This document shows, one piece after another, positions 15,884 to 56,027 of a stretch of 64,000 bases of DNA. The notes under the pieces were generated by a model. That model had not been told where the DNA came from, made no database searches, and saw only the letters and a program-made list of their open reading frames with translations. Origin of the DNA: Bispira polyomma (taxonomy: Eukaryota); the NCBI GenBank assembly GCA_965649765.1, contig OZ287751.1, forward strand, positions 32,054,001-32,118,000, in the 5' to 3' direction. Within the stretch, counting starts at the first letter, position 1. Each line of letters starts with the position of its first letter. The translations under genes and the position numbers were made by a program.

Positions 15884-16430
15884 CTACAAGCAAAAGTATT
15901 ATTGCATGTATTTTACAATATATTATATTGCTCACCAGTCATTGTAAGATAAGTAACAAAACTCTTCATCAACTTGTAATGGTTTGCAAAAATCAAAAGC
16001 GCTTTCCAATGGGTAACAAAAAAACTGAAACAGACATATTTTATGCCGCAGTTTTCTGGTGAACCGTATAACATGGGTGCACATGAGCCATAACTGTGAA
16101 CAGGAAATGTCATGTCAAAAAATTCTAAAACATTTTTGTTACATATTTCCATACTCACATATTTTAATGTTTGGAAGACATGACATGTATTTAAAGGGAA
16201 AATAGTAATAATTATACCAATCAATTCTAAACACTCCATTTTTTGGCCTAGAACTTTCATAATAGTACACAAGGTTAGTTCCCCTGGTGTATCTCAAGTT
16301 ACTTTCCAGTATAGCAGTGGCACTTAAAAAGGCAAAAAAAAACAAATGAACTAATTGCATGCAATACTGAACAGATGCTCGTGTACTATTACAGTTTACA
16401 CACAGAAAAAAAACCAACAAAACTGCTTAC

Positions 16431-16832
16431 CTTCTCGTCAATTCATAATCCTGATCAAATATAGATATATTTGCTGGTCCAATACACATATGTACAATGG
16501 GCCCACTGTCCCCCGATTTAACGGTATGCCACTCTACTCCATATGTTGACCATTCAGATGCTGTCTTTAATGCATTATACACTGCCTTTCTTTTGATTAA
16601 TCCTTTGTGTTGCATATGAGCCTCTGATATCCTTTGTAATATGTCACTTTTGGCTGCATAACTTGATGGCAATAATTTTTTGTATCTCTGTTCAAGAGCT
16701 GGCAAAGATCGAGGTCGAAAACTCCCCATATCTGCCTGAGCTACTAGTCCAAGAAACTCTATCAATTCTTCTTCAGTGCACCTTACCACTTCTTCACAAA
16801 TGTCTTGTTTGAGGTTATCCAGAATAAATTCT
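16431..16832 (-). CDS. MYLIP: MYLIP exon 3 (FERM central lobe)
   Basis: EFILDNLKQ...GLVAQADMG...YGVEWHTVK...IGP; AG/GT boundaries in phase. Confidence 0.92.
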
Positions 16833-17114
16833 CTGTAATTGAACAAAATACCATATGTAAAATTTAGTATGAATATACACACGTTATGTATTTATCACTT
16901 TGGTATAGTACACATTTATATATACATTCCAACAGTCAATTTTAACAGAAATTGCTTGAAATAACTCTTTTCTATTTTACACAAATGCATTCACTAACTA
17001 AAGAATATAAAGAAGAGAATAAAAAATGATTTAACAAAACAAAAATAAACTTCAATGACACAGTAACATGGAGACAATAAGACGGACACAATTAATGAAC
17101 ACAAAATAACATAC

Positions 17115-17320
17115 CTTGTAACCAACTGCTGAATAAAATGTGGTTTCACGTAAAATTTTACTTTCAGCTGTAGCCGATATGGGGCTGAACCAGACAACTG
17201 GCGTAGCAATCCATTCCTTAAATTCAACCAATGGCCCTCATTTTTGTTGTGTCTGTTGTCTTGTTGTATCTGAACAAGACTGAAGAAATCTGTCTCCAGA
17301 ATCCCAATATCCTCACAGAC
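17115..17320 (-). CDS. MYLIP: MYLIP exon 2 (FERM)
   Basis: VCEDIGILETDFFSL...WLNLRN...PYRLQLKVKFYVKPHFIQQLVTR; ttttag acceptor, gtatgt donor, phases consistent. Confidence 0.92.
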
Positions 17321-25775: not shown

Positions 25776-26009
25776 ATTAAGTAAGGTTTCCTCGTCCCTG
25801 AAGTACTATTTGGCTCTGGGTGGTATACTGCTGGGATAAAGCGGTATACCGGTTTTGTGGGTGGTACAGAGCCGGTATTTTGTGGTATGTACCATTGAAG
25901 TACTTTTTTTGTAAATGTGTAACTGATTTGATTAGATTTTTATTAGAATAATATATAAGCATCTTTTAATTAAAGATCATTCAAGCAGGAACTACTCAAA
26001 AGTAAGGTT

Positions 26010-26720
26010 ATGATATCCAAGACGAATAATCTCACCAAAAATGAGAGAGTTGGTCTACGAGAAAACAAAACAACTCAGGACATACTTATCAAAAAAGCTG
26101 ACAAAGGGTCAATATGTAGTTCTATCAATCATGCAACTTGCAACATAAGCAAATTTATTGATAAACATATAAAAAAATATGTCCCCCTTACTAAATCATA
26201 TGTAAGAGACACACAACACTTTATTAACTACATAAGGGCACTAGACAATATTCCTGAAGGAGCCACCCAAGTTATCTTAGATGTGAGTTCACTATATACA
26301 AGTATCCAAAATCATGAAGGAATATTAGATATAGCAAACCACCTCAGAATTGGCCCTGATAAACAAGTCGTGGGCCTTTTCATACTCAGACTCCTTAACA
26401 TGGTTCTACACTCAATGCACTTAAACTTTAATGGGGATTATTACCTGCAGATTTGTGGCACAGCCATGAGCACTGCAACAGCCCCTAACTATGCCAACCT
26501 CTTTATGAACAGATTTGAAACAGGAACAATTAATAACTGGCCCCTAAACCCCTCTTATGGCTGAGATTTATAGAAGACAAAAATTAATGATATGGACTCA
26601 TGGTCAAACCAACTGACCAATTTTTTAGCCTACCTTAATGACATACACCTAACCGGTAAGTTCAAACACAAGTCTAGTGATACAAATATCAACTTTCTTG
26701 ACAGTCAAAATTGATAAGGA
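26010..26720 (+). mobile_element. Penelope-like element RT remnant
   Basis: IKKADKG, SYVRDTQHFI, LDVSSLYTSI, YLQICGTAM...APNYANLFM, WLRFIED, INFL. Confidence 0.9.
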
Positions 26721-29167
26721 CCAACAAATATATAAAGCCTTACATGAAGGATACAGGAGTTTACCAAACCTCAGGGATACCCTTACCAGTGCCACAATCC
26801 AATACCCAAAGGGGGACTCTACCCAAAAAACACAAATCCTAAAAGTTTGTACCACCCAGCAAATATTGCAAAGGTTTATAAACGTTTTATAAAACTCTTT
26901 TAAACCAATCTTTTATCATTTTCAGTAACCTAAGGTTTTCAATGGTTTTGAGTATTTGTAAACGTTTGTAAACATTTATTAAATGTTTCACAAATGAGCA
27001 GGAGAATGGACAATTGCTGATAACGTTTAATAGAATAGTTGTAGAACATGGTTGACAACTGGCAGTCAGTCTACTACCACCTCTCTCAATCTTTTGACGT
27101 CTAAATACTGTAACAAGAAAACATCATTTCAAGCTACATATACAATAAAAAGTAATTTAACATGAAGATTGAAATATAGTGAAACTGGTCATAAATGGAA
27201 AGTAATGTTACTTCTTGATTTAGCGTCTGTATTTTGATTGTGGCACACATATTAGTGTGCAACTTCTTGGTTGAAATATCTTCACATAAATTCAGCTGTT
27301 TATCAGCCCACTAATGAAACAGATCAATGAGGTTTATTGTGAGTTCACCAAACTAAATACCCAGTTATTAAACTTCCCAAATTAATTTCCTGTGAAATAA
27401 GTAACATTATTTACTTAATTTACTGCAATAAATATATCAAAAATTTTGTGGGCGAAACTGGAAGAAAATTTAGAAAGAGAATTTACGAACACAGATTATC
27501 TGTCTTAAAACCAAATACCAAATACTGGTCTGTCACATGAAATTCAGTGTGTTAGAATGGTGTACACCCAAATTTAATAACTATGAAACCGCATCTCCTT
27601 TTCCTCAACCCAACCAAATAGGAAGATCAACAGGTATTGTTTGGCTGTCGCAGTCCTGTTGAATGGAACAAGCTCCCACAGACTAAGATAACAGGATCCA
27701 ATCGCTGGTTGCGAAAGCCATATAAAAACTTGCCTTTGAAGACTGGTCTACCCCCTTCTTAGTATCTTCCCTCATGGATGCTTTTTTAGTAATAACCTTT
27801 TGCCTGCCCTTGGACCTCCCTTTTTGGATATCATCGCCTTAGACAATGTTCTGATCAATTTGGCACTCTATAAACGCTATAATTACTATTATTTTATTAC
27901 TGTGATAATAGCATACACAAACACTAATTGTATCAATCTTCTCAACTCTTTCAGACTGTGAAGCTTTTTCCCGAACATTCTACAACTTAAACAATTATAC
28001 AGAGAATTATGTTTTATTGTGTTTGTGCATTGTCTGTGTGTTTGTCTCTCCATACTAATCAACACTGTTCCACACACACACTCATGGGCCATGTGGACAG
28101 CTATTGTGGCCTTATACCTTATATCAAGTCCCACAATTTAAACGATGATAATGCAGATAAGACATTTTTGCCCCTGGGTGTTAACCAAGGTCTTTAAATG
28201 GTTAATCAAAATGAGGGTGCATGTGTAAGTAGTTATGCAATTGTCTTACCTGCAGCCAACCACCAACTAAATGTATTGATTGATCAATAATGTTAGACAT
28301 TTTGTTTTACTGTAACATTAATAGGATCAAAGATACAAACTCACTAGCTGCAATTTTTGTATGTTGTTTATATGGCAAGTATGCTTTCAATTATAACATT
28401 GATTCAATTCCCATCAAATTATTTCGATTAAAAGTTTAACTAATAATCGAATTTGTAATATTAATTCCTAATTTCTTTAAATAATAGAAATCCAAAGTCC
28501 CAATTAATAATTTATCAATGATCTACCACACATTTGAAGTAAAAGTGTAAAACCATATGGAATAATTTGCCAATCAATATACGATTCAAGGAAACCCTCT
28601 CTGGCTTTAGAAGTAACCTTAAGACCCATCTTTTCACCTCGCTTACCCTTCATAGACATATTTCTCCTGAACATCACCCCGCTCACGAATTTGCTTTGCC
28701 AATGATGTTGCTCTTCAAATGATGACTGGCACCAATTAGCGGTATTCATGCTCAGTTCGGGGGTGAACCTTAAAACTCCACCACCATAGCCCTAGAAAGA
28801 CTACTTAAAGAAGATTTTGTTTTGACAACAAGTGTAATATTATTCTTAATTGGCTAAAACACTCTCTACAAATCTCATTGGTTGACCTTGTGGGTCACTG
28901 CTTGTGTTGTGGGTATTTTCCTCACTTTGAAATTACAAACTGAGGTATCAACAGCTATAGTCTGCTTAAATTGGACGCCATTGTACTATTTTAACATTTA
29001 CAAACTTTTTAGTTGTGATACTGGACTATTTTATCATTTATTTCACTGTTCAAGTGTTTTATGATTGATACACACGTTTATGTGTACGTGAAAACTGACT
29101 TAGACAATATATATACATATAAATACGGCCAATAAATTGAGCCAGTAAAAAAGGCAAAAAATTATAA

Positions 29168-32100
29168 TGCCTAGTGTGAAGTGTACCGGCTGTGGAGGTA
29201 GACATCCGAGACCCGTGGGAAGATGATGCATAGTGTTCAAACGGGCACAAGGCGAGGCCGAGCAGGATGAATGAATTGACGACAATGTGATTATATCCAA
29301 GTTCAGGTAGATCAAAGGCTGCGTGAGCTTGCCTTACTCAATGCCCAGGATCCTTCAGGTAAAAATCAGATCAAATCCCAAAGGGGTGGTTCAGTCGATG
29401 TTTTTGTTAAAAAGCATGTCAAGTGGCCTCACCAGCATGTACTGGGAGGTTCCACAAAAGATAGAATAGCGTACAACCAGCTCACATTTTCTCAACTTGT
29501 ATCGAGTTTCACTCGTAGTATTCAAGAAGAAAGTAATGCTTAAACCAAAGATCAAATGTGATTATTTATGTGATCTGTTAGAAGATGTCCAGGACTTTTC
29601 TTGGCAAGCTGCCAAGAATAGCCATGAAATACTCCTTTGTCAAATGGAGGAAGGAAGATAGAATGGTCTGACACCAACAAGACTGACAGGATACGTAGGG
29701 CACATGCCCAGAGACATGTAGTTGGTAGTAACACAGGTAGTAATTACTCTAAATCACAAACCAAGGATAGGAAAGCAGGCACACCTTGTTTTAGATTTCA
29801 AAAGGGGACATGCAAATTTACCAAGGATCATGAAATGGGGAGCAAAAACTTCATACATGTGTGTGAGTCCTGCTTTGCTGAGGGTAAGTTGTTTAACCAT
29901 CCTGACAAAGAGTGTAGGAACAATAAGTATAATTCAAAAAACGGGAGAGGGCCAGCATCAAATTAGGCGCTGGCAAAAATGGTATGAAATATTGTGATGG
30001 ACAGAAACACAGGTCAGATAGTGTATATAATCATGTAGAAGGTAGTAATACTGAAGTCTAGTATAGATAGTATGGTGATAGAATTGTGTACAGTACAGTT
30101 ATACCCAATGTAAAAGTATTGCATAATAATCAGTTTTTAGGTGATTGGAGAGAAGCATATAGAAACGCAGGTCAAAAGCGCACATATGCACAGGCCCTGA
30201 AACAGGGCACACATGGTAAGGGTGTTGTAGTCAGTCAGCAGCAAGCTGGGTGTGGGCGAAATTCTCCCACTAATAGAACAGCAAATGCCCTCAAAGTTAC
30301 CAACCATAGCATATCTAAATCAGCTGTTTCAAACGGCACTAGCATTGACAACAACAAATGTCCAAAAAGGGGTGATATTAAAAAACCCCAAAGCTCCATG
30401 GCCAACAGTCACAATAAAACCCTCATTAGAGACAAACAGGTCCCACTGGCTAATCGTTTCACTCCCCCAATGTCGACCCTGGAACAAGGCGATGGTCATA
30501 ACAAAGAAAGTGGGGAAAGGGGGGGGATGTGATTTTCTCAAAAGTAGCATAAATGATAACACCTACAGACGGATTGGCAGTGGCATAAATAATCAACCGG
30601 CTTGTGTCACAACTCCATTTGACAACAACAAATGTCCAAAAAGGGGTGATATTAAAAAACCCCAAAGCTCCATGGCCAACAGTCACAATAAAACCCTCAT
30701 TAGAGACAAACAGGTCCCACTGGCTAATCGTTTCACTCCCCCAATGTCGACCCTGGAACAAGGCGATGGTCATAACAAAGAAAGTGGGGAAAGGGGGGGG
30801 ATGTGATTTTCTCAAAAGTAGCATAAATGATAACACCTACAGACGGATTGGCAGTGGCATAAATAATCAACCGGCTTGTGTCACAACTCCATTTTTAGCA
30901 CATAAAAGGCGCAACATGTATGACAATGGGGATAAGGATAAAGGGAAAACCACTTCTATTCAAGGTGTGGAAACACCTCCACAAAGTGACAAAGTTAGCA
31001 AAAGTACGGGTGTTTGTAATAGGGGTAATGGGGAGACTCGTACTCCAGGAAATAAAACCAATATTGTCATAGACAGCATTGCATGGGGTAATAGTACGGT
31101 TGCTTCAAGTGAATATAACAAACAATGTCATAGTAATGGAACCACACAAGACAAGGACCAAAAAGTAGTATGGCAGGGAAAATTAACACCACATGCCCCA
31201 GTATTTATCCCTAGCAAAGTATGTTCCTCGGTTGACTTGCTAAACGTAGATGGCAAATATGAATTGCAATTCTTGAGTAAAACAAACACAAAGGATATTG
31301 CTCAGCTAGTGCAATGTAAAAAATTATACGACACTCGTATTTTTTAAAACCCTCAAGGCTTGGGCTTTGCACCATTGAGTGATTTTGTTAGAACCCAGCA
31401 TCAGGTTAGTGTCCATACTGTCCATACTTACATGAAATGGTTAAGGCAACGGGGAAGTACATTTTTCAGCAGGCACGTTATCCTGTCAAATCCCAACTAA
31501 AGGTTGATAACTGGGAAAGGTACTTACTGGGATTCACAGTTGATTGATTCCATCAAATTTGGATTCCCCTAGGCTTTGATAGGAATGTTGAACTTCAGTG
31601 TGACTTAAACAATCACACATCAGCTACCCAATATCCAGCACCAGTAGATACATATCTAAATGAAGAATGTGGTTTTAATGCAATTATAGGGCCCTTTGCC
31701 ACCAATCCTATAACACAGCTTCACTGCTCACCATTTATAACTCGGGAGAAACCAGGATCAGTAAATCGCAGGGTAATCATAGATCTGAGTTGGCCAGAAG
31801 GTGGTAGTGTAAATGGGGGGGGGGGGGAGACTTCTATATTGTAGCCAGACCTTTCAGAGAATTAGTGATGAAGTAAGGTATATTATGAGTAAAAACAACC
31901 ACAAGATTATCAATTATATTGATGACTTAATAGGCTGTGGTGTACCCAGCAAAGCTAGGGCAGCATATGACTTCCTGTACCAATTACTAGGTAAGTTAGG
32001 TCTTACCATCAGTGCAAAAAAGTTAGTTCCACCAAGTACACAATGCATATGTTTAGGAGTACCAATTGACACTGTACAAGGTACCATTTCTATTCCTGTA

Positions 32101-32830
32101 GACAAACTAGAAATCATAGTCAAAACTTGTGCCACTTGGCAGGATTTTGAGGTAACCACAAAAAGAAAACTGCAGTCATTATTAGGTTCTCTCTTATATG
32201 TCGCAAAATGCTGCAAGCCAGCTCGCATTTTCCTGAACAGAATGTTGACTAGTCTTAGAGCTGCTAGTAATCCCAAGCGTATTGTACTAGATTCCACAGG
32301 GATGTCAACTGGTTTCAGTCTTTTCTAGCTCAGTACAATGGTGTCACCTTCTTTAACCACAAGCCGGTGGCTGCAGTCATTGAATTAGACGCATGTTTAA
32401 CTGGGGTAGGGGCCAGGTATGGGGATACGTTATACACTCTACCAATTCCCCAGTCCATGCAAAGCATCGGAATAGTCAGACTAGAAATGGTAAATATTGT
32501 GGTGGCTTTGAAGGTGTGGGGTAGTTACTGGAAAGACAGCAAAGTGGTTATCCGTTGTGACAATAGTGCAGTAGTATCAGTGTTAAACACAGGTAGGACT
32601 CGAGATAAATACCTTGCAGCTTATACAAGGAATGTATTTCTCCTTACAGCTAGGCACAACGTAGACTTTAAGGTAATGCATATTTTAGGCATTAATAATG
32701 CAGTGGCTGATACACTATCCAGGTGGATGGGCTCCAACTCTCAGTGGCAAATAATACACAGGCATGTTAATGATTCTGTGTGGTGTGACCTTAAGCAAGA
32801 GGCCTTCCACCTGGATTGGTCCATATAGAC
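29168..32830 (+). mobile_element. Decayed DIRS/Ngaro-group retrotransposon (gag, RT, RNase H; no tyrosine recombinase seen)
   Basis: gag CTGCGGRHPRPVGR, KWPHQHV, C-x6-C..H..HVCESC..H...C; RT RVIIDLSWP, NYIDDLIG, LQSLLGSL; RNase H ELDACLTGVG, LEMVN, CDN, NAVADTLSR. Confidence 0.9.
30345..30894. repeat. Apparently exact 274-bp tandem duplication
   Basis: 30345-30620 repeats at 30619-30894. Confidence 0.95.
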
Positions 32831-33496: not shown

Positions 33497-35200
33497 CTAA
33501 TCTGAAGCATGGCTCAATGCCAAGTCCTGTATTGCTGGAACACTGGGACCAATAGTGTTCAATCTATTTTTGGATGCCGCTTTGAATCCTACAAACTTTA
33601 CAGTGTCTCTGTGGATGTTGTTTGGCATCATTTGGTGGTACAACTGAGTGAAAATGCCTGGCAGTGAGCCTGATAATATCCTCATTATTATTATCAGCAC
33701 ATCTGCTGGTTATGCAAATATAAGACTTCCAATCACCTAAACACAATTCATTACAGATTTACACAAAATTTATCTTTAATTCAAATTTATACACATATTT
33801 TAAAACTTTTTGGGTATAGGTCTTCAGAACGCTAATGAACTATTTCTAGTTAACAGGATTCAAATGGCACATCTTCTGATCAGTCAAAGAAGATGAGTTA
33901 AAGAAGATAGATAACCATTTCCCTGTACTATTTTAGTTTCTCTTGTGGCGTCATGGGGTTGCAGAAGCTGGTACAAATTGATTGATTGATTAATTGAGGG
34001 TAAATGTTGCTTTGAAAACATTGTATATGTCATATCACAACAGGTGGTTTAACTGGTGAGGGAAAGCAGTGCATACTAGTTGATCTTGATTTGAGCTGTT
34101 TGCAGAAGATAAGTATTGCATAAGGTTAAACAGGTCATATTATAGCTTACATCAAGTTGAACATCTTCCGTCATTTTGTGACAGTGTAATTATTAGTGTA
34201 ATTATTAGTCTGTGACTAGCTTTCTGTACCATTTAACATTTCTAACATGATAAAATAATATACATACACTAAAATTTACCTGATCTGCTTGATCCACGCC
34301 TTCCATGTTTAGGTTGCAATCAAGGATACACTCTGGTTTCAGAACCATTACCCCATGTCTACTATGTACGCATACTTCCCTGGTTGCTTCATTGTGACAG
34401 TTGTTAGCCTGTGTACATTTTTCCAAGGCTTTGGTAGGTACCCTGTTTTTGCAAACTATTAACAAGCTGCAACAGTTTGTTCTGCCATATATTGAAACAG
34501 TCCAATAATTTACAGCCCAATAATTTACAGCCAACAAATGATTCAGCCATGTAAAGTAAGTTTATTTTCAAAAAGAAAGGTTTATTTGTAACGATGCACT
34601 GTCGACATCGGGCATTAGGTTGTGTTTACCATGCATTGGCGTCATTTTACCTAAATATACGAGAAATTTGTGTGTATATCCAGTAGACGATTTAAAAAAT
34701 TGATACATTTTGACACCAAATCGGGAGCTTTGCTGGAATGTATTGTTTAAACTCAAGTCTACCTAGGAGCAAGTTTAGATAGGAGCAAGGATGCATCCAG
34801 AGATATGTTTTTCTCTAGCTGCAAGGCCTTTTGAAATTTGTTGTTAAAGTTATCAATTAATGGATTTATCTTGTATATTCAACCATGATTTGGATCCCGA
34901 CAATCAGGCTGGTTAGTAATATCTACAAGATGCCAGAAGCACAGAATGTTCATGTTTTGATCTATTTTTATCATTATACGGAACAAAGGTGTTGTCATAA
35001 GTGGGTCTGTGGTCCAATATTCTGCATCCGTTGATTTTTTATCAGTCCCATCATTAAGATCAAATTCAGGTTCTCAAACAAGAAACCAAAATTTCTTAGG
35101 TCTGGTCGAGCCTGTAAGAACTGTTTTGCATAACGGTTTGGTTTGGTTTGGTTTTTGGTTTGGTGTTACAATGTCATTACTGAGAAAATGTTTGAAATAG
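33497..35200 (-). mobile_element. Decayed piggyBac (PGBD4-like) transposase
   Basis: SRFGVKMY....SSTGYT..FLVYLGK; KPECILD.N.NMEGVDQADQ; VKWYRKL; C-terminal RHF......QRHCKVC...C.....EPCFRLDH cysteine-rich domain. Confidence 0.85.
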
Positions 35201-35670
35201 TCTATTTATATATATAGCAATCTAGCAATGAAGTATCAGTAAGCATATTAGGCTTAGCCAAAAATGGGGGCAATTCTGGTCTTTCTAAGTTAGGCTCTAT
35301 CCATATAGTCTATTATCGGCACCAATATCTATTTCCTGTCCCTCATCCCCAGAAATGAATGTGTACTTTTTGTTCTTGGTGTTCATCACTTGATAAATTT
35401 TCATGTTCTGACTCATTAGAATCAGTTTAATCAAGACCATGTTCCCGTCCAAAGCCTTGTCCACAACCCTATCTGCTTTATACTCTTCTCCCTTTTACTC
35501 TCACACCTCCCCCTCTTACTCTCACACCTCCCCTTCTTACCCTTAGTTAAATTCTTTCAACTTGAACTCTCCCTCTAATTCTTGTTATTCTTCTTGTCCT
35601 TAGTATTACTAGTGGTTCAGTTTTAGAAGAACTAAAATCCAAATTACTTTCAAGTCTCAGTAAAATCTGT

Positions 35671-38600
35671 CTCCGTCAGGGGGGGGAAATTGAACCCCCC
35701 TAATTGCCCTGGCCCTCGAGAGAGAACGGCCCCACCACGGCCTGAAGGGGACCGCCGGCGCTGACCCGACACACTCTACCAGATGCCAGGCCGGAACCCC
35801 GGGCTGTGGGCTACCACTGCCCGGCGCGGATCCCCGGGAGGGGCAATTACGGGGGTTCGATTTCCCCCCCTGGACAGAGACAGAGATGGCAGACGGGGTT
35901 GCCAATGAGGATACGGGGTGGTTCTGGAGTTAATCAGGTGATCAAGTCATAATGGATCTGGGCTCTCTTTCATATTGGGAACAAAGGGTTGTGGATGTTT
36001 TTTTTGTGTGGATTGGAATTTAACTATTTTAGCTTAATCAAGGTAGGGTTCATGCTCACTATGTTTTAACAAGTAGTAGCAACATATTTGGTGGGGATGG
36101 GGGGGTGGATGATTTCCATTATATTTAAATATCATTATACCCAATTTTTTACCAAATAGTTACCAAACATGGGGATAAAGTTTGACCTAGATCTTGGGAG
36201 TTGGCTGTATCATCTAGTGATACTTGGAGTATACCTGAATACTTTGGTACCCCATTCCATCTGGTGGGGGTAGGGGTAGGGGTACCTCTTAAGGGTAGGT
36301 GGTCACATGGAGAAGTATCACTATTATTTCACCAACTATCAGCAGTTATAATCACCACTCTGGTTTGGCTACAACAGCAAGGGAATAGGTATATCTAGTT
36401 TCAAGGAGGCAGGTGAGGAGCCGGCCAGATTCTTGGGGGGGACTAGCCGGGTTACCCTGTATTGGTTGGCTGCGATTGTGGTGTGACCAGGACTTCGCCA
36501 CATGGTACAAGGAAGCAAATATGGGAGGACGAATATGATTAAGCACTCCATGTCCAAATTAGGTTGGGAAAGGTTTAAGTTAAATGGTAGGTAGGAGTTA
36601 GTATATGCAATATGGGAGTTATGGGGATTTCTGGAACAGTGGAATTTTTTTTTTTTTTTTTTTTATATATATATTTTTTTTATTGAAATTCTACAAAATA
36701 CATGTACATAATACAAGTTGTAAGGAATATCTATTATATACACTCTATTTGAACATTAAACATTTTCAAACACAGCCAATTTATACATCATGGAATACAG
36801 TATGGTCCTAAATGGAACAGTGGAATTTTTGTTAGAATTTGTATTATAGTATAGAGACATTTAATCAGGCTTAAAATAAAGTAAACTTTATAATTGTAGT
36901 GAGATTTTTGGTAGAACTAGTGTTATAATATAGAGACAATTATTTAGACTTTATTAATTATTTTAGAACTAAACTCAAAATCGTAGTAATTGTAGAAGAA
37001 TAATTCTAGGTTGGAAAGTAATATTTCAAGCAATAATTAATTATAGTGAACTATGACCTTAGTAATACATAAACATTATTGTTTTCCTTGACTTACAAAT
37101 AGTTGTCGATGCAAATGCTTAACATTATTGTTTTCTTTAACTTGCAAATAATTGTCAATGCAAATGCATAATATTATTGTTTTCTTTAACTTACAAATAA
37201 TTGTCGATGCAAACGCATAATATTATTGTTTTCTTAAACTTTACAAAAATTTGTTGCTTAGTAATAAGTATTCTAAGAAAAAAAAAAAAAAAAATAAGTA
37301 TTCTATTTTGCCACTTACTGAGTATATTTACCCCCTTTTGGTTTAAATTATTTGATGTAACAGTATAATACATCACATAATTTACCTTCATTATTAAATT
37401 CTATACTTTTCTACATTATAAATATATCCTAACTTAATTATTATTAATAACATTATGAAATCCCATACTTTACTAAATTATAAATAAATCAAATCCTTAA
37501 TAAATTATCTTGAGTTTAAGTACATTATTAAATCCTATATTTTCCAAATTGTAAATAACATCCTAATTTTGTCATATCCTCAGTAAATGTTCTGTGTTTC
37601 CTTGAGTTAATTTACGTTTGTTGTGTCTATTTCTGTGGGTATTAACTGCCATAATATTTATTCTAATTCTAAAATATAAAATCTAACCTTAAATCTTCTT
37701 ACTCTTAATATTAATTCAGTTAATGATTGGTGTTTGCTATTTTATACATATATATGTGGATTTCCTCTATAATATTGTTACCTACATGTATTCTGTCCAT
37801 TTCAATATTCACATTTGTTATCAATATATATTTCTTTTGAATATCATTTATTGTGTTTCCATTATTGTGTTTTCCACTCTATTAATACAACTTTTCTTGA
37901 CTCCGGACCTGAGTTTGCCAATAGATTTGGAAGGTTAAAAATAGAGGGTGACATTGACCTCGACCTTGAAGGCAAATAACCTTGATCTTGGATTACAAGC
38001 CTGCACCCTTTGAGTTGGTTGGCAGCGTGTCCGTCCGAAAAGCATGCCTTCTCCGAAAACTGTGACTGTACCCCTCCCAAAAATTAGTTGTAAGGTAAAA
38101 TATGTAGGTGTCCTAACAAAAAAATCCTAGAACCAAGGCTGCAATATCTCACTTATTCACAACTCCGACTCTACAGTGTGCTCAGTTTACAATACTAGAT
38201 TGAGAAACCTTAAGGTTGGACTATCCAGTTAGAATATTCCAGTAACAGCTTTTGGTCGGTAGCTGGGTTGGACCAGGGGAAATGGGGCAAGGTGAATTGG
38301 TGGGTCAGTAGTGTTGTCCCAGCTGGTGGGTGGTAGGGGAACCCAGAGTACCAATATGAGTTCTGGTGAGGTGTGATAGTTTTAACTCTTGGGTTATGGT
38401 CTTGTCGACCTAATCGACATGGTGGCAGCAAACGGAAGGTACAAATAACTAGTGACAGTTGGTAATAGGTTAGATCCTATCTAGTTATATAGATAGAAGA
38501 TAGGCAGATACTTGGTGGAATAGAAACCATCGGAAGGGGATACGACAAAGAGGATGATTCTCGGGCAGCAACACCTTTCTGGTTTCTTCCTGGTGAGCGC

Positions 38601-38809
38601 CCCCTCCCAGGGAGCCGTGCAGGGCGGTGGTAACCCACGGCGTGGGGTTCCAGCCTGGCATCCTGTAGAGTGTGTCGGGTCGGCACTGGCGGTCCCCTTT
38701 AGGCCGTTGCGAGGCCGTTCTCCCTCGAGGGTCGGGGCAATTAGGGAGGTTTGATTCCCCCTCTCCCCCGGACAGAGACGGCGGACGAGGTGGCCCCCCA
38801 TCTCGCTAC
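35671..38809. mobile_element. Unclassified 3.1 kb insertion with GC-rich structured terminal repeats
   Basis: 35666-35900 and 38599-38795 are ~80% similar (core inverted); flanked by AAATCTGT direct repeats at 35663-35670 and 38810-38817; no recognisable ORF. Confidence 0.65.
37072..37250. repeat. 49-bp tandem repeat, about 3.6 copies
   Basis: Units start at 37072, 37121, 37170, 37219 (AACATTATTGTTTTC...GATGCAAATGC). Confidence 0.9.
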
Positions 38810-40424
38810 AAATCTGTTTTGTTCAAGAAGTAGTCTAAGAAAGCAGTTTAAAATAAAGAAAAGTGTTTCCATATTAGGGTTACTGTGTCAAATTGCACAA
38901 AAACAACTTGACCTGGCCAAGTTAAGATTTCAAGTGAACAGCTGTGTTAAAATTTGCTTTCCATCAACTTACTTTTACGCAAGAACAATATTTTTTATTT
39001 CATTCTGGCAATGCCATTTGCCATTTTTTAAAAATAATTTCTGGTTTACCATATTGGCCTTTTCTCCAAATTTTTTCCAATAATTTTTGTATAAAAGTAG
39101 TGGTATAGAGTAAGAAAAACGATTTGTTGCAAATGATGCGAATAATCGTCACAAGGAGTGAGACAAATCGTCGCAAACTGTGCGACAAATCGTCGCAAAC
39201 TGTGCGATGATTTGTCGCAAGCAAAACTTCACAAGGGGCATTATATTAAGGAGGCTCTTGTTACTATTTTCTTTGTTCTAATTAATTCATTAGAAACTGT
39301 ATAAATTAACACATATAGTTAATGTTATTAAAAGTAAATGTAATTAAACAGTTTAAAGTAAATCAAGCAAATGAATATTATTAATCATGCAAATGTCATT
39401 TAAAGTTTATAGTTTAAAAGTAAATACCACAGTGTCAAGTAAGTAATTATATTGTCAGTATATAAGTTAAAAGCAACATGTTTAATAATGAATCTTTTGT
39501 AAGTACATGGTATCATCATATTTTTTGACAACTATGTTCAAACATGTAATGTATTTTATCAATGTGTAAGTATGCAGTTTTATACAAGTGTGTGCACTAA
39601 GAAACCCTGTTTCCTGTGCATCATTCCTTAGGAATGTAGTCCAAGGTTCTTCCCATATTTACACCTAGGTTTAGCAAAATATGTAATCATGTGACCCCTT
39701 CAGCTATCAAAAACTATATTACCCACAATCCTATGCAGGTCACATGACACCCCATATAAGGCAATGTTATCTAAATATTATCAGATAACTGGTCACATGA
39801 CCATCAACAATTCTGGCTTCCTAGTCACATGACCATCAATAACTCTTTCTTCCTAGTCAGATGACAAATCACATGACCCTTGCCAATACTATATAAGGCA
39901 ATGGTTTGATCACATGACCAAGCAATGCATCAACATTTACTAAATTACTTATTTTCTCTAACCATGTGACCAGTGTTTCCTGTAGAATTCCCAAAATTGT
40001 TATCTGTGTGACTCATGGCATGCATGCCAATGTTGTGTATATAAGGAGCAGCACATGTGCCAGAAAAAAATATTAGAGATTATAATATTATGGGATGAGA
40101 TGAGATAAGTACAGCATTCTGGGCCTTGTGCCCAGAGTCTATAATAAAGAGCCAGTTATATCAGGCCTCACAGAAAAGTACCATCAAGACTAAATATGAT
40201 ACTACAACTGCTGTTTGTTAAACATTTTAAACTATGTTAAAAGGAGAAATAAAGTATGATGAAAAAGCTTACAAAAAAGACTATTATTAGTTTGGACTTC
40301 AACTGTTGTCAAGTGGTGGAACCCGCCGAAAACAAAACAACTACCGCAGAGCCCAAGTTTACAGAAACATCTGAAAAAAGTCACCCAAAACACCACTTGA
40401 CAATTAACGATTCTTTATTTTGGT

Positions 40425-41637: not shown

Positions 41638-42350
41638 TTATTTTCTTTGATAATAGTATCTTTCTTTGTCTTCATTCAAATTCAAATCCATATACTCTGG
41701 ATCTTTGGGGTACATCTGTCTGGCTAAATGTTTAATCTGACTGGCATCTCGGGGATTCTTGAACAGTATCATATAATATGTATTCAAGCTGATTGTTCTC
41801 TGGTAATTACTTTTAGTAAAACACATTTTGTGTCACCACAATGACAGACTGCCTTTGGTAAACAACTCAGTCACTCTACTTTCCAAGCGATCCATCATGT
41901 CATCTAAAATAAGCAAGCAAGATTCTAGTTCCTCGACATCTGGCAGTCCTTGATGAAAATCTACATTTTTCATCGTTGCATAAAGAGGTTGCCATTGTGT
42001 ATAACACCAAATAACCTTTGATGGAGGCTGATATATCTTTTCATCTTTAACTTGCAATAACTTTTTCAAAAATGTCGTTTTGCCACTTTCAGTTGGTCCG
42101 GCCACCAGACATGTAAATGGATGTATCATTTTAGGTAGCGCTACCACGCTATAGCCATCTTGATCTACTCTAGGACTTGGATATGTATCTGTTGGTCTGA
42201 CCTGCTGTGGTGGCAGCACTGTTGGTAGCCCTGTTGGTATAACTTGTATTTGTGACAGTTTCTTTCCGCCTTCAGCATAAACAAGTTTGATGTGTCTTTT
42301 TAAACTATCACTTTTTGAAAGTACATTAAGCAGATAAGACACTGAGACAT
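41638..42350 (-). pseudogene. Maverick A32/FtsK-like packaging ATPase with N-terminal C2H2 zinc finger (frameshifted)
   Basis: HPFTCLVAGPTESGKTT (Walker A), LLILDDMM (Walker B), LFTKGS, RTISLN.YMILFKNPRD..QI..LARQMYP. Confidence 0.92.
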
Positions 42351-42422
42351 GTTTACACTTTGATGTCTAAACTTGAAATGACCTTTGTCATGACATGCAT
42401 GAACTTTGATAATCAGTGATGG

Positions 42423-42830
42423 ATGAGGTCCCACATGTGGAGGTGTGGAGATGTGGAGTTACCACATGTGGAGGTGCCGAAGTTCCACATGTGGAGGTAT
42501 GGAGAGGTGAAGGTTCCACATGTGGAGGTGTGGAGATATGAAGGTTCCACATGTGGAGGTGTGGAAATGTGGAAGTTCCACAGGTGGAGGTGTGGAAATG
42601 TGGAAATTCCACATGTGGAAGTGTGGAGATGTGGAGTTACCACATGTAAAGGTGTGGAGGTTCCACATGTGGAGGTGTGGAGGTGTGTAGGTAGCACATG
42701 TGGAGATGTGGAGGTTCCACATGTGGAGGTGTGAAGATGTGGGGCTGTACCACATGTGGATGTGTGTAGGTACCACATGTGGAGATGGAGAGATGTGGAG
42801 GTACCACATGTGGAAGTTTCATATGTGGTG
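42423..42830. repeat. Minisatellite of ~15 CCACATGTGG palindromes inside the Maverick
   Basis: Cores at 42431, 42462, 42485, 42516, 42547, 42578, 42609, 42640, 42663, 42694, 42717, 42750, 42773, 42804, 42819. Confidence 0.95.
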
Positions 42831-43311
42831 GTAGAGAAAAGGCTGATGTGGTGAAACCATTTTTAAAGCAATATTCACTAAGTAAAATGAATAATGTTAA
42901 ACCAAACAAACCATCATTACATTAAAATTACAATAACCACTTAGGTATGATCAAAAGAAAGTAAATACTTTAAGAAGGAATACTCTTTTAGACAATTTGA
43001 ATCGGGCAATTTTTAAAGATAGTTTTAGTTGCATTAAATTAAATTCAGAAATCAAGATCAGTTTGAAATGCTAAACCAAACACTATTTCTTTTGTATCAT
43101 TAAAAAAAAAATGCTACAACACATAAACTTTTCATGCCTTAAACAATAATCACTTAACTATTATGAACATCACTTACTATCATTAAATTAAATTAGGAAA
43201 ACTAATTGCTAAAATGCTAAACCAAAATATTTAGTCCCCACAAACATTTTTTTTTTTTAATTTTTTTTTTAAAATGATCAATTATTAATTCATAAGCGTT
43301 TCTATAAAGTT

Positions 43312-43714
43312 CTAGATTTGTCCATCATTGTAGTTTTCTAATCTGTTGACAATCTCTTCCATGGTATATCCAGCAAAGGTGTACAGAGTTAACAATGCAC
43401 AATAGTGTCCACAAGCCATTGAAAATGGACTTTGCAACTGAACATCGTTGTAAGTACAATTTCTGGCAAAATGCCGAAAAAACTGCATGAACTCTTTGAA
43501 GAGAGGTGGTAAACCATAGGAGTCAAAGTACAGCCCATCCCCTGGCTCATTGATACTAAGCACTACCCAGTGGGTTCCTTTTTTGTGGGAACAATCTGTG
43601 TTGCAGATAAATACACGTTTTCGGTCGTGTGAGTAGATATCTGGCAAACACACCAACATCCCATTTTGGAGGCTTAAAAGTTTGTAGTAGATTTTGTAGT
43701 TCTACTGTATTCAT
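43312..43714 (-). pseudogene. Maverick adenain-like cysteine protease (one frameshift)
   Basis: NTD....GTHWV (His), YFDSYG (Asp), QLQSPFSMACGHYC (Gln/Cys) catalytic motifs. Confidence 0.92.
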
Positions 43715-43715
43715 C

Positions 43716-44395
43716 TTACAGAGTGAAATCAGTCACAGCGTCTCTGTAACTGTCAATTTCAATGGTATTTTCAAATTCTCCAAACACAACAATATTCACA
43801 GTTTCTGTTAAAGCCTTTTAAAATGGAGTTCTAGAGCAACTGTGCCAGTTTTTCTCAAGTTGACACAACCTCCCCCTTCTTCTAAATCAGGTTATAAATC
43901 AAAGCATATCAATGTGTAACCCTTTTATTATTCTTCTCTGTCAATGTGATTCCCCTCGTCTTGATAGATGGTCCCTAGGCCAGAAAATAGAGTCGTGCAG
44001 CAATTCATGTAGTCATCTGTGTCGAAATCTGGTTGCAGTGCCTTGCCAGGAAATGGTGTCCTGCCTACACTGAGTGTAATATGTTCCACATCAAAATATT
44101 CAAACTGGAATGGATTTGTCTTGTAGGTTCTATTGATGGCACTGTTCTTTAGAAATCCCAACACAATGCGTTTAGGAATTTGAACAAAATACAGGTTTTC
44201 TTCAGTGTGACTTCTGGTTCCTATTCCCACGATAAAAGTCTTGCATTCTCCTCTGGTGATTGGATATTTAGCAATTCCCAATTCTAGAGCCTTTGTGTGA
44301 GCAGCCTTGATTACAGAGCTGATTTGTACTTTTCTGATTATCATTTTGACACTTTCTAATTTCATCTTAAAGTTGGCACCATCGGTTGGGCTTGG
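43716..44395 (-). pseudogene. Maverick major capsid protein (double jelly-roll), C-terminal half
   Basis: AKYPITRGECK...QIPKRIVLGF...YKTNPFQF...GYTLICFDL.PD...G.V.LELHFKKAL...IVFGEFENTIEID motifs; in-frame stops. Confidence 0.88.
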
Positions 44396-44569
44396 GTCAT
44401 TGACTGATTGTACAGTTCATTTTTTTCTGACTGTTCCATATTGGTATTTTTTAACAGGTCACCCATATCCTTTTCTAATCTCGCCATGGCTGTAGCGGCT
44501 GTCCCTACAGGATTTACACAGGCCCTGCAAAGCTTTAGGAATAACAACCTTTTCAATATATTTGTTCAT
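44395..44569 (-). pseudogene. Truncated Maverick conserved ORF following pX
   Basis: MNKYIEKVVIP...RLEKDMGDLLKN...EKNELYNQ; starts in an ATGA overlap with the pX stop; cut by the deletion that joins it to the MCP. Confidence 0.5.
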
Positions 44570-44907
44570 CGTTTGAATAATCCAATCAATTTTTCAGCAA
44601 CGGTGGGGATAAGAGTGCCTAAAAAAGGAGCTAGCAAGGCTGGCAAAAATCCCCCTGTTTGTAAGATATCCTTTTTTCTCTCATTAGAGGTTTGTTTCTT
44701 CCTCAGCTCTCGCAGTTCTTTGTACTTTCCTAGTTTTTTCTTTTCTGTTAATCCCAGTGGGATATTTCTTTCAAGTAGATTGTGAGCACACTCAACGAAA
44801 CAGTGTAGGAGAGCTTTGTCTGCACCACGCATAATATATTTTGTTGCTTTGGAATCACACTGAGCCAAAATTTATAAAATATATTTATTCTTTTTTACAT
44901 CAGACAT
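44566..44907 (-). pseudogene. Maverick core protein X-like ORF (adenain-cleaved, amphipathic C-terminus)
   Basis: ECAHNLL...ILQTGG|FLPALLAPFLGTL resembles the adenovirus pX xGG|(F/I)LP site; one frameshift near the N-terminus. Confidence 0.75.
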
Positions 44908-44960
44908 GTTGACTGCATGACATTTGTCAGTAAAATGAAGAACAATACTGATATTCCCTT

Positions 44961-46011
44961 TTATCTATACTGATATCTTGTGACATCTTTGGCAGGTATC
45001 CATGAGTCATACTTTGGTGGCCAGTGTAACCATCGTACCAAAAGTTCTTTAAGGCGTCCTTTCAATTTTCGGCTCTTTAGAATTTTATAATACTCGCTGG
45101 CCATGACTTTTTGTAACTCTTCTTCGTAGAAAGTTCCTTCAATGGATTCCACTGCATAATCATTCATTTTGCAGGTAGGATAGCTTTGAGACCAGTCTCT
45201 ATTCACTATTTTAAAAAGTTCACCACTCCATCTCTGAACGTATTCCCTACTAAATGTTTTTCTGCCATATGATATTCTGACAAGATCCCCAACATTAAAT
45301 TTAAATTTCTTTTTTCTTGAAATTTTTCCTTGATGGCTCAAGTTGTTCGCCGTCATTTTGGCTGGGGCCATTTTTATAGAGCGATGAACACTCCAGTTGT
45401 AAGCATTGGTAATATCTTGCAACACATCAATGTACCAATGGGTTGGTTTGTGAGTGAAGTATTTGTAAATCTTGCCTTTGATGGTCTTAATAGTTCTCTC
45501 AGCGTAATTTGCCTTAACTTCATTTTGTGTCACAAAGTGTAGAACAGAATGCGTTTTGAATAACTGCTGCACTTTATAAATGTAAATTCAGTCCCTTTAT
45601 CGGAGCGGACAGTTTCTGGTGTTCTTTCCTTAAAAACCAATGAGAAAGCATGAACAACTTCATCTCCAGATTTGTTATTTAAAGGCACTGCCCACACATA
45701 CTGTGAAAATATATCCAAGACTAACAGAACAAAATGGTGACCATCATTGTATTGGGCAATTTTTGTCATATCCATCAGGTCAACATCCCACTGCTGATCT
45801 ATACTCGCTGAAATGACTTTGTTTTTTTTTTAATAATCCTTCTTGCAGGTTTGTGCAATGTATAAGTCTCTTCTCCACTTAACCAGGATTTCACATCTGT
45901 TAGGGTTATGGACGGGTCTTCTTTTGTTGCAGCTTCATACAGCTTTTGGGGCTCAGAAAAACTAGCAGGATGGGCAGGATTAAAGTAAATTGAAGTAAAA
46001 AGTTTGTTCAT
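44961..46011 (-). pseudogene. Maverick retroviral-like integrase with C-terminal chromodomain (frameshifted)
   Basis: YFNPAHPASFS...YTLHKPARR; WDVDLMDM...LLVLDIFSQYVWAVPL...SDKGTEF; AERTIKTIK; YNWSVHRSIKMAP; LVRWLHWPPKYDSWIP. Confidence 0.93.
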
Positions 46012-46193: not shown

Positions 46194-48350
46194 CTTGCTT
46201 CTTTAAAGTTTGATAGGTAAATGAATTGTAGCGGTTGTAGTATGAAGTTATATAGGGGTTTTCAAGGAAAAACCCCAAATTAAAAACATTTATTGTTCTC
46301 TAGGATACACTAGGATACACCATTTCAATAAATTCACAAAAACATCTATTTTCTGACACTTTATACAGAATGAAAATTGGAGCATGCATGGCCAAGATAT
46401 ATCTGTTTTAAGATTGGCATATCATTGACACATCATTGACATATCACTTTTGGGCTCCTAGGAAATCCAAGATGGCGGCTGAGTGATAATAGAGTTATTT
46501 GTAAAATATGGAACCTTCCATCTTTCTTCTCCCCTTAGCTACCAGGGACATGCTAAACTTCAAACTGTCCCAAATCCAGTTTTCCAAAATCTTTCCAAAT
46601 ATTCCCGAAAATGACTGATGCTCGGGGGATTTGATATATTTCGGACAATAAGCAACCTCACCTGTCATACCCCTGAATGATGTTTAGTATGCACCTACCC
46701 ATTATAATAATATGGCACCACCTGACCGGTAATAGGGTACCTCTAATAGGGTATCCCTGGGTGTCGTTTTGGGTACACCCAGACAAATTGTCGCAAATTC
46801 GAATGTTAAATATATACATATTTTTCCAATAGAAATGCTCACTACACCTACAATTTTGCCGTCCTTCACCTTAACACAATCAGGTGACCTGTAAAATTCA
46901 GCCTAGCAGAGATGAAGGTGTTACCCTTTAGTTCGCAATGTGAGACTTTCCCTGAGGTTTGAAATAATTTGGTATAAATGTATAGAGAAATTGCCCACAG
47001 CCACGGATTTTTGTCTCTGTCTTGATACTGTCTTGGCCTGATGTCTGAACAACCGGTATATAACCCTTCATAGGAAGTATAGAGGTCAAGTGACATTCAT
47101 TTAAAAAAAATTATATCTCACAAATTATAAATAAATTATTCAATGCACAGATTCTGCAACAATTCCTCGCAAATGAATATTTCTGCGACAGTTTGTCGCA
47201 CACCATGCGATGATTTGTCACACACCATGCGACCATTTGTCGCACTGCTAGCGACACATTTCCATCTACATACAAATCCCCACATAAATTTATGCGACAA
47301 TCAGTCGCACATCTTGCGACAATTTGTCGCACACCTTGCGACAATTTGTCGTACCTATGTTCAAAGGGTTTTCCATCTACCATTTGAATTTGTGACAATT
47401 AGTCACACTCCTTGCGACGATTAGTCACATCACTTGCGACAAATCATCGCATCACCATGGCAACCACCCTAGCAACCATGGTTGCCGTGGCAACAAACAG
47501 CTAAAACGCAGGCTGTGCGGGGGTGATTTGCTCACTCAATACTACTATAAGTAAAACAAAGTAGAAGTTTAAATGTAACTATCTTCAGTGCTGATCACTT
47601 ACCAATAAAATAAATACTAAAACTACAGTTTATTTTATATAAAACAATTTTTCCTCAAAATGGTGCATGTTATAAAGTGATCAACATGTGTACTATACTG
47701 TATAAGACTGGACATAAAGGAATATATATACACATACATTAAATGTTTAGACTTTATCAGCAGATGCACAACAGAAGTGTGAGTGGATGTTGTTTTAAGA
47801 TCACTAACTGTCAGGTTTATTACTTAGGAGTGAGATAAAGAAAATCTGACTCTTGCTTACAAATGAGCAGATTCGGGAAATAAAGTGTAGCTGTGAGTTT
47901 TGAAGAATGTGGCATAATTTTGAAGATTTAGCTACTAACTAAGGCGATTTTCGGGTTCGTCTAGATTCGCGCTCCCAATTCGCCAAAGTGGGACCGGGAC
48001 ATTAGTATGAACCTTCACAATCTGAACGCTCCCTCAAAAAACCCAAAACTATTTAAGGCATAATATTCATATGGCGACATTTCGTTTTAGATTTATATAT
48101 CTAACATAACCCTATATTCTTAGAGGTATTTTAGATCAAATTACCAAAGTTTCAATCCAGTTTCATTATCCTGTGGCTGGCTAAGTGCCGACCGTGGCAG
48201 CTTCTGAACGGCCCATGGTGGTTTCGAAACTGCCACCTAGTGGAAGACCAGTTAACGCCCGTCCAAACTGCATGTTTTTGATATGTGCATATTATTCGAT
48301 AGACTGGTTCCCAATGCTCTGGTTACATATGGTTTATGTTTATTGACCTA

Positions 48351-55001: not shown

Positions 55002-56027
55002 GTAAGCTGAAACATGAGCAATCATACATACATGTAGGTTCAACCTATTTCCTTAAACAATTTTACTGGTAGCTTAAGTTATATTTGACTTTTTGCATAA
55101 GTCTATTACAGACTTTGTGTTGTTGCAAAGTAAATATATTATCTGTAGGACTCTATTTGATGATTTATTAATTCATATCAATATTTGAAAGGGCAAAGCC
55201 AAAGACTCACAGTGCTGCACAGCAAAAATAGGGCTCACAAAGAAAATACAAGCCTAAAACTTGCATTGCATTGTTTTAGCCTTGCATTTATGATTTCTGT
55301 TTTGCATGTGAAGATTGTTGTGTAATGTAAAACTAAGGGCAATATAATTTACTGTACAAGCAGAGAAATTGCATTATAAAACAAATATTATGAATGCATG
55401 TATTACTTATCTAAAACCACAAACTAGGGCAGACACAAATGTAAATAGAGCATAACTTTGCAGTCTTAGGAGTCTGGATAGTGTAAGGGTACCATTATTG
55501 CCTCTTATATCTGCAGTCATGGGTCTAAATATAGACCCATGCATTTATGTGAGATAGTTGGGTACACTCTTGCTTAAGGCTGGTGGTTTACAATACAGAA
55601 ATCTAGACAAATTACATTGTAATCCCCCTCTCATAAAATAATATGAAGGTAGTGAAAGTTAAACCCTAACAAAAGTAGAGAGCTGACAGCTTTATTATCT
55701 GAGGGGTCTTTCTAAACGCTGTCTCAAAATACAAAAATATAATACAACTTTACAGTTCATACTTGAACTTGTGTATTATCCACATAGCGCATTAAGACTT
55801 GAAGTCTCACTTGTAGATAAAACTATATAGTTGTACTTGCAGTCAATAGTATTTCCCTTTGTTTAATGTACCATAAATAATGATATTCAGCCATTTACTT
55901 TTCATTACGCTGTATCAAAGAAGGGTGTAATTGAGTGTCCAACACATAGCTTCCACAATGATGAAGGGTTTAGGGACATGATAGGGTGTCGAATCATTTG
56001 TGTCACAAGTGTTTGTTCCTTTTGCAG

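Follow-up and report, generated by a model that had tools for sequence, protein, structure and literature searches.

Fold-back ends of a 3.1-kb insertion in Bispira polyomma appear to match the known footprint of Penelope-like elements better than a virus-like hairpin replicon

A 64-kb stretch of Bispira polyomma DNA, referred to here as the window, contains two GC-rich islands, one of which folds back on itself while the other repeats its core in the opposite orientation. This arrangement raises the question of whether the islands are the ends of a single mobile unit and, if so, what kind of element would leave ends of this shape.

Layout of the insertion and its repeats

The insertion is about 3.1 kb long and on the + strand reads 8-bp repeat, a-X, a'-T, 2.7-kb body, X'-a'-T, 8-bp repeat. 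The features of the locus are as follows (strand in brackets where one applies):

34200-35662 (-): decayed piggyBac-type transposase adjoining the left junction; outer limits approximate, set by eye
35663-35670: 8-bp direct repeat, left copy, putative target-site duplication
35671-35843 (-): inverted copy of the terminal repeat, made of arm a (35671-35709) and core X (35710-35843)
35840-35884 (+): arm a', start of a 5'-truncated direct copy, pairing with arm a in a 44-bp stem
35885-35914 (+): internal template of the tail (T), matching the element's final 33 nt in direct orientation
35915-38598: body or cargo, 34% GC, GC-richer at its ends and AT-rich in the middle, with short tandem arrays
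36632-36830 (-): nested short insertion with a T-run, flanked by identical 18-nt stretches (36632-36649 and 36813-36830)
37064-37251: tandem array, 49-bp unit repeated 3.8 times
37381-37569: degenerate array of 55-nt copies, three in all, spaced at 62 and 72 bp
38599-38777 (+): 3' terminal repeat, the pseudo-LTR (pLTR) equivalent, with core X' to 38733 and arm a' at 38734-38777
38778-38809 (+): 3' extension or tail of 30-32 nt, present at this end only
38810-38817: 8-bp direct repeat, right copy

The islands (35671-35903 and 38599-38809) are each 68% GC, whereas the body has 34% and the window 35%, and the CpG o/e of the terminal repeat is 0.63-0.69. Most of the geometry proposed in the first-pass annotation was borne out by measurement. 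The right island, described as the left core inverted at about 80% identity, aligned at 82% over 179 columns (35669-35843 vs 38601-38779, E 6e-46); the arms of the left fold-back (35666-35709 and 35841-35884), proposed as a 44-bp stem, were complementary at 39 of 44 positions; and the downstream arm did run in the same orientation in both copies (35840-35903 vs 38734-38795, 78%). This last feature follows from the geometry, since one repeat is present there twice, side by side, inverted in one copy and truncated but direct in the other: the left island consists of the right repeat inverted, fused with the final 75 bp of that repeat in direct orientation. This upstream direct copy is 5'-truncated in a partial-tandem, pLTR-like manner (35840-35914 vs 38734-38809), GGGG at 35840-35843 is common to the inverted and direct copies, and the inverted copy ends 30-32 nt before the element's 3' end. 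The segment beyond the fold-back is a direct repeat independently (10 of 5000 shuffles; 0 of 1000 in a second test). T matched the tail directly (0/1000 shuffles) and not in inverted orientation (161/1000), with 21 of 30 aligned positions identical plus a 3-nt gap, the match being weak in the last third. Of 21 module pairs tested, four pairings were significant, to which an implied a/a'R pairing is added.

The repeat copies differ chiefly by transitions, many of them at CpG, as in old decay, and the insertion is read as an old one. The inverted copies of core X differ at 22 of 134 positions (84% identity), on which ground an assembly artefact was rejected. The length of a C-run is common to both left arms and differs from that of the right arm by a 4-nt indel.

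The 8-bp direct repeat said to flank the unit was also found, as AAATCTGT at 35663-35670 and 38810-38817. This 8-mer occurs six times on the + strand of the window, and a shared 8-mer is expected in about 1% of random draws from windows of that size. The last five bases of its left copy also lengthen the fold-back stem, and the microhomologies at the two 5' junctions are 4 and 5 nt. We infer that it is a true target-site duplication (TSD), and the earlier view of the unit as a single non-autonomous insertion, duplicating its target and lacking any visible enzyme gene, was supported. The flanks had been read as piggyBac on both sides; this was confirmed on the left only (PF13843, E 1.1e-6, about 34774-35046). 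The decayed piggyBac is the likely insertion target; none of 98 and 14 candidates was a relative on which the join across the insertion could be checked, and no convincing piggyBac TIR pair was seen.

Folding of the islands and hairpin or transposon ends

As DNA, the left island folds far better than its shuffles (z -7.29; 0 of 200 equal), and this significance stems wholly from the stretch where inverted and direct copy overlap. On its own, the core folds no differently from its shuffles (z -1.47, -1.10, -1.21 and -0.02, with 16, 26, 24 and 96 of 200 shuffles), so the "branched core" described at first is no more structured than its composition implies; in consensus folds of the two sequences available (n=2), two-sided changes affected 2 of 52 and 3 of 45 pairs on opposite strands, which is uninformative. 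The right island showed no significant fold (z -0.55) and no trace of the inner arm (3261/5000 shuffles), hence a hairpin is possible at only one end. A weak stem-loop is present at the terminus, and the inner flanks are not inverted repeats of each other (4637/5000 shuffles).

These results bear directly on the idea, raised in the first-pass annotation, of flip/flop hairpin telomeres, according to which the locus would be an integrated, defective parvovirus-like or rolling-hairpin replicon. A 219-nt fold-back at one end with the same core inverted at the other, and a length close to what a deleted parvoviral genome would have, would suit such an origin, and an excerpt of PMC12297876 states that parvoviral hairpins may be imperfect direct repeats inverted internally, so that the locus shares with homotelomeric parvoviruses and densoviruses a terminal palindrome with an internally inverted core. 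Unlike those viruses, however, it has one hairpin, no symmetric ITR and a target duplication, its T segment lies inside on the left and outside on the right, and no NS1, Rep, VP or capsid remnant was found in the 18 body frames (Pfam 0/18; PHROGs 1/18, E 0.3, function unknown). With the unstructured core and unrelated inner flanks, this makes a viral origin highly improbable, and that idea was not supported.

The long inverted ends and the 8-bp duplication could also belong to a non-autonomous DNA transposon with TIRs of about 210 bp (MULE, hAT or Foldback-like, with an 8-bp TSD), or to a composite of two inverted 250-bp MITEs, to which GC-rich ends are suited. Such an element would later have lost its outer 30 bp on the left, a deletion for which the 5-nt microhomology could account, and its inner arm on the right. 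We consider this unlikely: TIRs should abut the TSD at both ends, but 30-32 nt separate the right inverted repeat from it; one or two later deletions are required, one stopping exactly at the duplication; the right side shows no trace of the inner arm; and neither island has a further, solo copy within the 64-kb window, nor was a separate duplication seen by eye around either one.

A priming model based on Penelope-like elements

A passing mention of Penelope-like elements (PLEs) in the first-pass annotation proved to be the best lead, and its verdict that the element could not be assigned was too strong, because this layout has already been described for PLE insertions. In Adineta vaga, Pen2a_Av carries two direct 218-bp pLTRs with an adjoining inverted one that is 37 bp shorter; its tail measures 31 bp and its TSD 9 bp, and an unrelated gene lies between such repeats with an 8-bp TSD, captured non-coding sequences also being reported (excerpt of PMC3846280). 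An excerpt of PMC8557442 describes PLE insertions with a 5'-truncated upstream copy, an adjoining inverted copy and a 30-40-bp tail that is often one-sided, and Naiads without hammerheads. According to part of PMC11167929, both strands of the target are cut and extended by a PLE protein, whose two RT start sites lie on either side of the tail. We therefore favour a PLE-mobilised, non-autonomous insertion, with the enzyme acting in trans, as the probable origin of this locus.

The present element shows the inverted copy beside its 5' end (35671-35843 vs 38601-38779) and a one-sided tail of 30-32 nt copying the sequence that follows the internal repeat; its terminal repeat measures about 180 bp, and its 8-bp repeat and 4- and 5-nt microhomologies would fit the variable TSDs of about 8-10 bp and/or microhomology junctions of PLEs. 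In these respects it resembles the A. vaga EN+ PLE insertions (Pen2a_Av and the pLTR-flanked NRPS or other cargo), which have an inverted plus direct repeat, an interior that may be unrelated and a further direct repeat, with a tail of about 31 nt, repeats of about 200 bp, TSDs of 8-10 bp and microhomology junctions (PMC3846280, in part). It differs from Pen2a_Av, whose 5' direct pLTR is full-length, in that its own 5' direct copy is just 75 bp, and from the A. vaga PLEs in its 68% GC repeat, in which no ORF start, TATA-type motif or hammerhead was recognised. The tandem and inverted layout and one-sided tail are shared with the Naiad and Chlamys PLEs and their non-autonomous derivatives, which the same excerpt of PMC8557442 presents as abundant in invertebrates and which likewise have no canonical hammerhead; a scan of the islands, strict or relaxed, found no hammerhead core. 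Unlike Naiad and Chlamys, the locus shows no N-terminal GIY-YIG or RT remnant against the PLE-type protein set described below, and its target is not a microsatellite.

The model would call for a PLE enzyme and an RNA intermediate, for two separate priming events and for a donor in the form of a partial tandem (repeat R, that is X'-a'-T, then body, then repeat R). Cuts staggered by 8 bp would expose two target ends. One of them would prime cDNA from the tail end, with synthesis running through the 3' repeat, then the body, then the final 75 nt of the upstream repeat; the other, aided by the 5-base microhomology, would prime about 30 nt further in and copy the repeat in the opposite direction, and the two products would join at the common GGGG. 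This would leave the inverted copy next to the truncated direct one, with a fold-back where they overlap, and would account for the tail at one side and for the 8-bp duplication. This single model would explain all four significant pairings as well as a/a'R, with no later deletion, and it builds on the repeat geometry, tail length, both microhomologies, 8-bp repeat and transition-rich divergence that were observed. The shared C-run length of the left arms is expected if both derive from the upstream repeat.

Enzymes of this type have been active in this genome, as a PLE-type RT/GIY-YIG element is found 10 kb from the insertion (HMM, E 2e-83). The 3' end of the insertion had no match in this one neighbouring PLE of the window; and 69 PLE-type proteins, a set centred on one PLE family that did not specifically include Naiad proteins, gave a best E of 4.0 within the insertion, and their HMM gave nothing there. 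For lack of an RT or GIY-YIG match we did not file it as an autonomous PLE. Several observations count against PLE membership: besides the missing RT/GIY-YIG remnant, the missing hammerhead and the short 5' direct copy, the 68% GC and CpG o/e of the repeat contrast with 35% and 0.28 in the body of the neighbouring PLE, the identity of the tail to its internal template falls below the 84% of the core, and the insertion is a single copy within the window, with no empty site and no partner element.

Were the PLE reading true, the locus would be a clean footprint of two-site priming, with the inverted copy and the 3' end starting 30 nt apart, and a further instance in which PLE machinery carried along unrelated non-coding DNA, here 2.7 kb; its unusually GC-rich, hammerhead-less repeat could point to an uncurated PLE family. 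This would be of use to transposon curators, the principle being already known.

Other retroelement readings and the body

Read on the minus strand, the locus could be a non-autonomous DIRS1-like tyrosine-recombinase retroelement, with its left ITR at 38.6-38.8 kb and an rICR-rITR fold-back at 35.7-35.9 kb, integrated by a circle recombining within the 8-bp shared core. According to an excerpt of PMC3266345, DIRS1 typically folds back at the 3' end, the rICR pairing with the terminus, has a conserved ITR measuring 31-304 bp and carries ATT at each end, and here too there are ITRs of similar size, a fold-back at one end through an rICR complementary to the 3' end, and ATT at both junctions. However, the lICR of DIRS1 should complement the 5' end, and its slot here is direct (10/5000 shuffles; inverted, 1469 and 4012 of 5000); the AAT junction is absent at the ICR position, there is no 3-bp circular junction, and gag, RT/RH/MT and tyrosine recombinase were not found in the element. 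A string at 38064 (-), YSHSFRR, which we take to resemble a tyrosine-recombinase motif, and an RT/RNase H (Pfam) 3 kb from the element, presumably of the DIRS order, were counted in favour. Motifs of this loose type occur five times in the six frames of the window, and the YSHSFRR frame, the one frame taken to a deep search, had no match among 1.84 billion representatives and no Pfam or PHROGs support, so this remnant was rejected. On balance a DIRS1-like origin is quite unlikely.

A Helentron-type non-autonomous element (HINE), with a 5' subTIR and IR, central tandem repeats and a 3' subTIR and hairpin, is extremely improbable. The a...a'...a' order, central arrays and weak terminal stem-loop resemble the scheme in an excerpt of PMC7492417, but the elements described there have 11-12-bp subTIRs, a 1-12-bp spacer, insertion at TT and no TSD, whereas the arms here are 44 bp, the 131-bp spacer is itself repeated inverted and an 8-bp repeat is present.

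It is quite unlikely, too, that a-X-a'-T...X'-a'-T is a fixed, GC-rich, ribozyme-less terminus of an undescribed invertebrate class, whose fold-back would self-prime and whose 8-bp core would be a recombination overlap. On such terms the inverted and split-direct repeats would fit neither DIRS1, Ngaro/PAT nor PLE, and an autonomous partner is postulated; a new terminal architecture would be far more interesting.

No recognisable protein remnant was found in the body. The Pfam negatives weigh little, because Pfam also overlooked the clear RT frame of the neighbouring PLE, and body ORF lengths were at chance level (P 0.24 and 0.31), a test of little power since the decayed piggyBac control behaved likewise (P 0.44). 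RNase H-, SGNH- and GIY-YIG-like strings picked out by eye were unsupported by Pfam or the PLE profile (best E 4.0 against the window's own elements), and selenocysteine read-through yielded no long frame. Four Rfam matches (E 0.89-4.2) were all far below gathering, ARAGORN found no gene, and no tRNA-, 5S- or 7SL-derived head of a SINE was recognised. An LTR or TRIM was also discarded: the right island can be read as bounded by TG...CA, yet the left end opens with an inverted copy at the duplication. Blastn against phage and plasmid sequences gave no match; GTDB pattern scans returned 0 loci and then six prokaryotic loci whose similarity covered only 20-30 bases at the pattern, which we put down to chance; and a promoter scan, with bacterial models irrelevant to this animal host, gave nothing. 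Within the body, the nested insertion at 36632-36830 probably arrived later, as a truncated retro-insertion with a poly(A) tail.

Layout of the terminal islands

At 35% GC, the animal DNA of the window is AT-rich and dense with decayed mobile elements, and the GC-rich islands reported by the first-pass annotation are present as it described, both with 68% GC. They align to each other in inverted orientation (179 columns, 82% identity, E 6e-46), and no third copy of either was found within the 64-kb window; all conclusions on the element are drawn from this single copy. The sequence AAATCTGT lies on both sides of the unit, at 35663 and 38810, and chance alone gives an 8-bp flanking match for roughly 1% of window pairs drawn at random. 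The stem of the left island, formed by arms 35666-35709 and 35841-35884, is complementary at 39 of 44 positions, and none of 200 shuffles folded as well (z -7.29). Folding of the right island was no better than chance (z -0.55), and the core alone did not fold beyond chance on either strand of either copy.

On the forward strand the order is the 8-bp repeat, outer arm and core (a-X), arm and tail segment (a'-T), body, inverted core with arm and tail (X'-a'-T), and the 8-bp repeat again:

35671-35903: left island
35885-35914: left T
35915-38598: body
38599-38809: right island
38778-38809: right T

Twenty-one module pairs were tested in both orientations against 1000 shuffles, and five were significant.

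Significant module pairs
Pair	Orientation	Shuffles as good
a / a' (left)	inverted	0/1000
a / a' (right)	inverted	0/1000
X / X'	inverted	0/1000
a' / a'	direct	0/1000
T / T	direct	0/1000

T is the module carrying most weight for interpreting this layout. It lies outside the fold-back, internally at the left and at the extreme terminus at the right; both segments have the same orientation and agree at 21 of 30 positions, in an alignment that reaches the last base before the 8-mer, with poor agreement in the final third. Given this placement of T, the absence of inner arm a from the right island and the lack of any relationship between the two inner flanks, the left island joins two copies of the right repeat, one inverted and missing the final 30-32 nt, the other direct and comprising only the final 75 nt. 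At the fusion point, GGGG (35840-35843) is common to both copies, and the outer junction has 5 bases in common with the putatively duplicated target. An origin from a DNA element with long terminal inverted repeats (TIRs) and later deletions is unlikely.

The flip/flop arrangement seen in the first-pass annotation is the unavoidable outcome of an inverted copy fused to a truncated direct copy. The left fold-back could recall a hairpin replicon, a reading that we consider very improbable; parvoviral telomeres, as described in PMC12297876, require a hairpin at both ends and NS/VP genes.

Comparison with Penelope-like insertions

A typical Penelope insertion, according to PMC3846280, comprises two direct pseudo-LTRs (pLTRs) of ~200 bp with an adjoining shorter inverted pLTR, a 31-bp tail at one end, a target-site duplication (TSD) of 9-10 bp and 5' junctions with microhomology; unrelated cargo, coding or non-coding, is also described there between pLTRs with an 8-bp TSD. 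According to PMC8557442 and PMC8969392, the upstream direct copy of Penelope-like elements (PLEs) is usually 5'-truncated, the tail measures 30-40 bp, and Naiads have the same layout without hammerheads. Every structural item of the published layout has a counterpart in our element, with the flanking 8-bp repeat as the putative TSD. Three features fit less well: the 5' direct copy is short, the tail agrees poorly in its final third, and the repeat is far richer in GC and CpG than the neighbouring PLE. The feature is real and represents one old insertion, which probably behaves like a PLE insertion and is best read as a non-coding version of a known PLE-type footprint. As neither a PLE ORF nor, in the islands, a hammerhead core was found, we did not class it as a PLE proper.

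Most likely, a PLE enzyme would have acted in trans on a repeat-body-repeat transcript. The target would be cut with an 8-bp stagger, priming would occur twice, at the end of T and ~30 nt further in, and both products would be joined at the GGGG. The geometry, tail and microhomologies are observed; the RNA intermediate, enzyme and donor are inferred. In PMC11167929, a PLE protein cleaved and extended both target strands in vitro, with two RT start sites bracketing the tail.

An atypical DIRS element appears improbable: the DIRS1 scheme, as outlined in PMC3266345 and PMC9210276, accommodates the fold-back and ATT ends, but demands an internal segment complementary to the 5' end, which here is direct. 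Non-autonomous Helentron-type elements (HINEs) have subTIRs of 11-12 bp and no TSD according to PMC7492417, whereas this element has its flanking 8-bp repeat. It is improbable that the layout is the fixed hybrid terminus of a new element class. No description of this repeat family was found by text search of the literature, by which a sequence cannot be recognised; supplementary consensuses (PMC8557442, PMC10294476) could contain the repeat.

Coding content, decay and putative target site

No protein-coding content was found in the element, a negative result of limited strength. Pfam matched none of 18 body frames and also missed the frame of the neighbouring decayed PLE, used as control, PHROGs matched one of the 18 at E 0.3, and an ORF-length test lacked power. 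A profile of 69 PLE-type proteins, collected with the RT of the neighbouring PLE as query and centred on one family, detected the control at 2e-83; against these proteins the best E for the element was 4.0. A recombinase-like string at 38064 (-) was rejected after 0 matches in 1.84 billion representatives, in a search covering one frame of the right third.

Of 134 core positions, 22 are not shared by the two copies (17 transitions, 12 in CpG context), a pattern that resembles neutral decay since insertion. The body contains short tandem arrays, and a T-tailed segment at 36632-36830, bounded on both sides by the same 18-nt sequence, seems to have been inserted later.

The first-pass annotation had likened the flanks to the acidic N-terminal region of a neighbouring piggyBac. 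A piggyBac-type transposase was confirmed left of the insertion, the frame running out of the left junction has serine/acidic stretches, and the spacing of the 8-mers, 3147 bp, is divisible by three. Searches for piggyBac relatives for testing the join, and for a piggyBac TIR pair, found none; a candidate join of the piggyBac across the insertion is plausible.

Other features of the window

10650-10780, 13730-13844, 14358-14480: three copies of a ~110-120-bp self-complementary MITE-like element
15900-17320 (-): host exons, FERM-domain gene
25767 (-): sole strict minimal-hammerhead core of the window
25930-27760 (+): decayed PLE-type RT/GIY-YIG element
29170-32830 (+): retrotransposon with gag-like, RT and RNase H frames (RT/RNase H by Pfam)
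30345-30894: 274-bp tandem duplication, 100% identity
35851-35868, 38743-38763: small G/C hairpin of arm a'
39129-39231, 47183-47463: related 22-bp tandem arrays, inverted
41800-45600 (-): ATPase-like frame, adenain-type protease (PF00770), integrase-like frame with chromodomain
55974-57623 (+): host exons, SPATA2-like, with RanBP zinc fingers

The loop of the a' hairpin resembles a tRNA T-arm/Pol III B box; ARAGORN and Rfam gave no support for a tRNA origin. The neighbouring PLE has 69 homologues with up to 70% identity. The hammerhead, on the opposite strand just upstream of that PLE, is placed as expected for an inverted pLTR; a second copy of its flank was looked for and not found. The retrotransposon, which seems DIRS/Ngaro-like from its motifs, showed no tyrosine recombinase downstream, and the duplication within this otherwise decayed element is either recent or an assembly artefact. 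The region at 41800-45600 would represent Polinton/Maverick-like remnants, and the 22-bp arrays, 8 kb apart on either side of it, are possibly the ends of another element.
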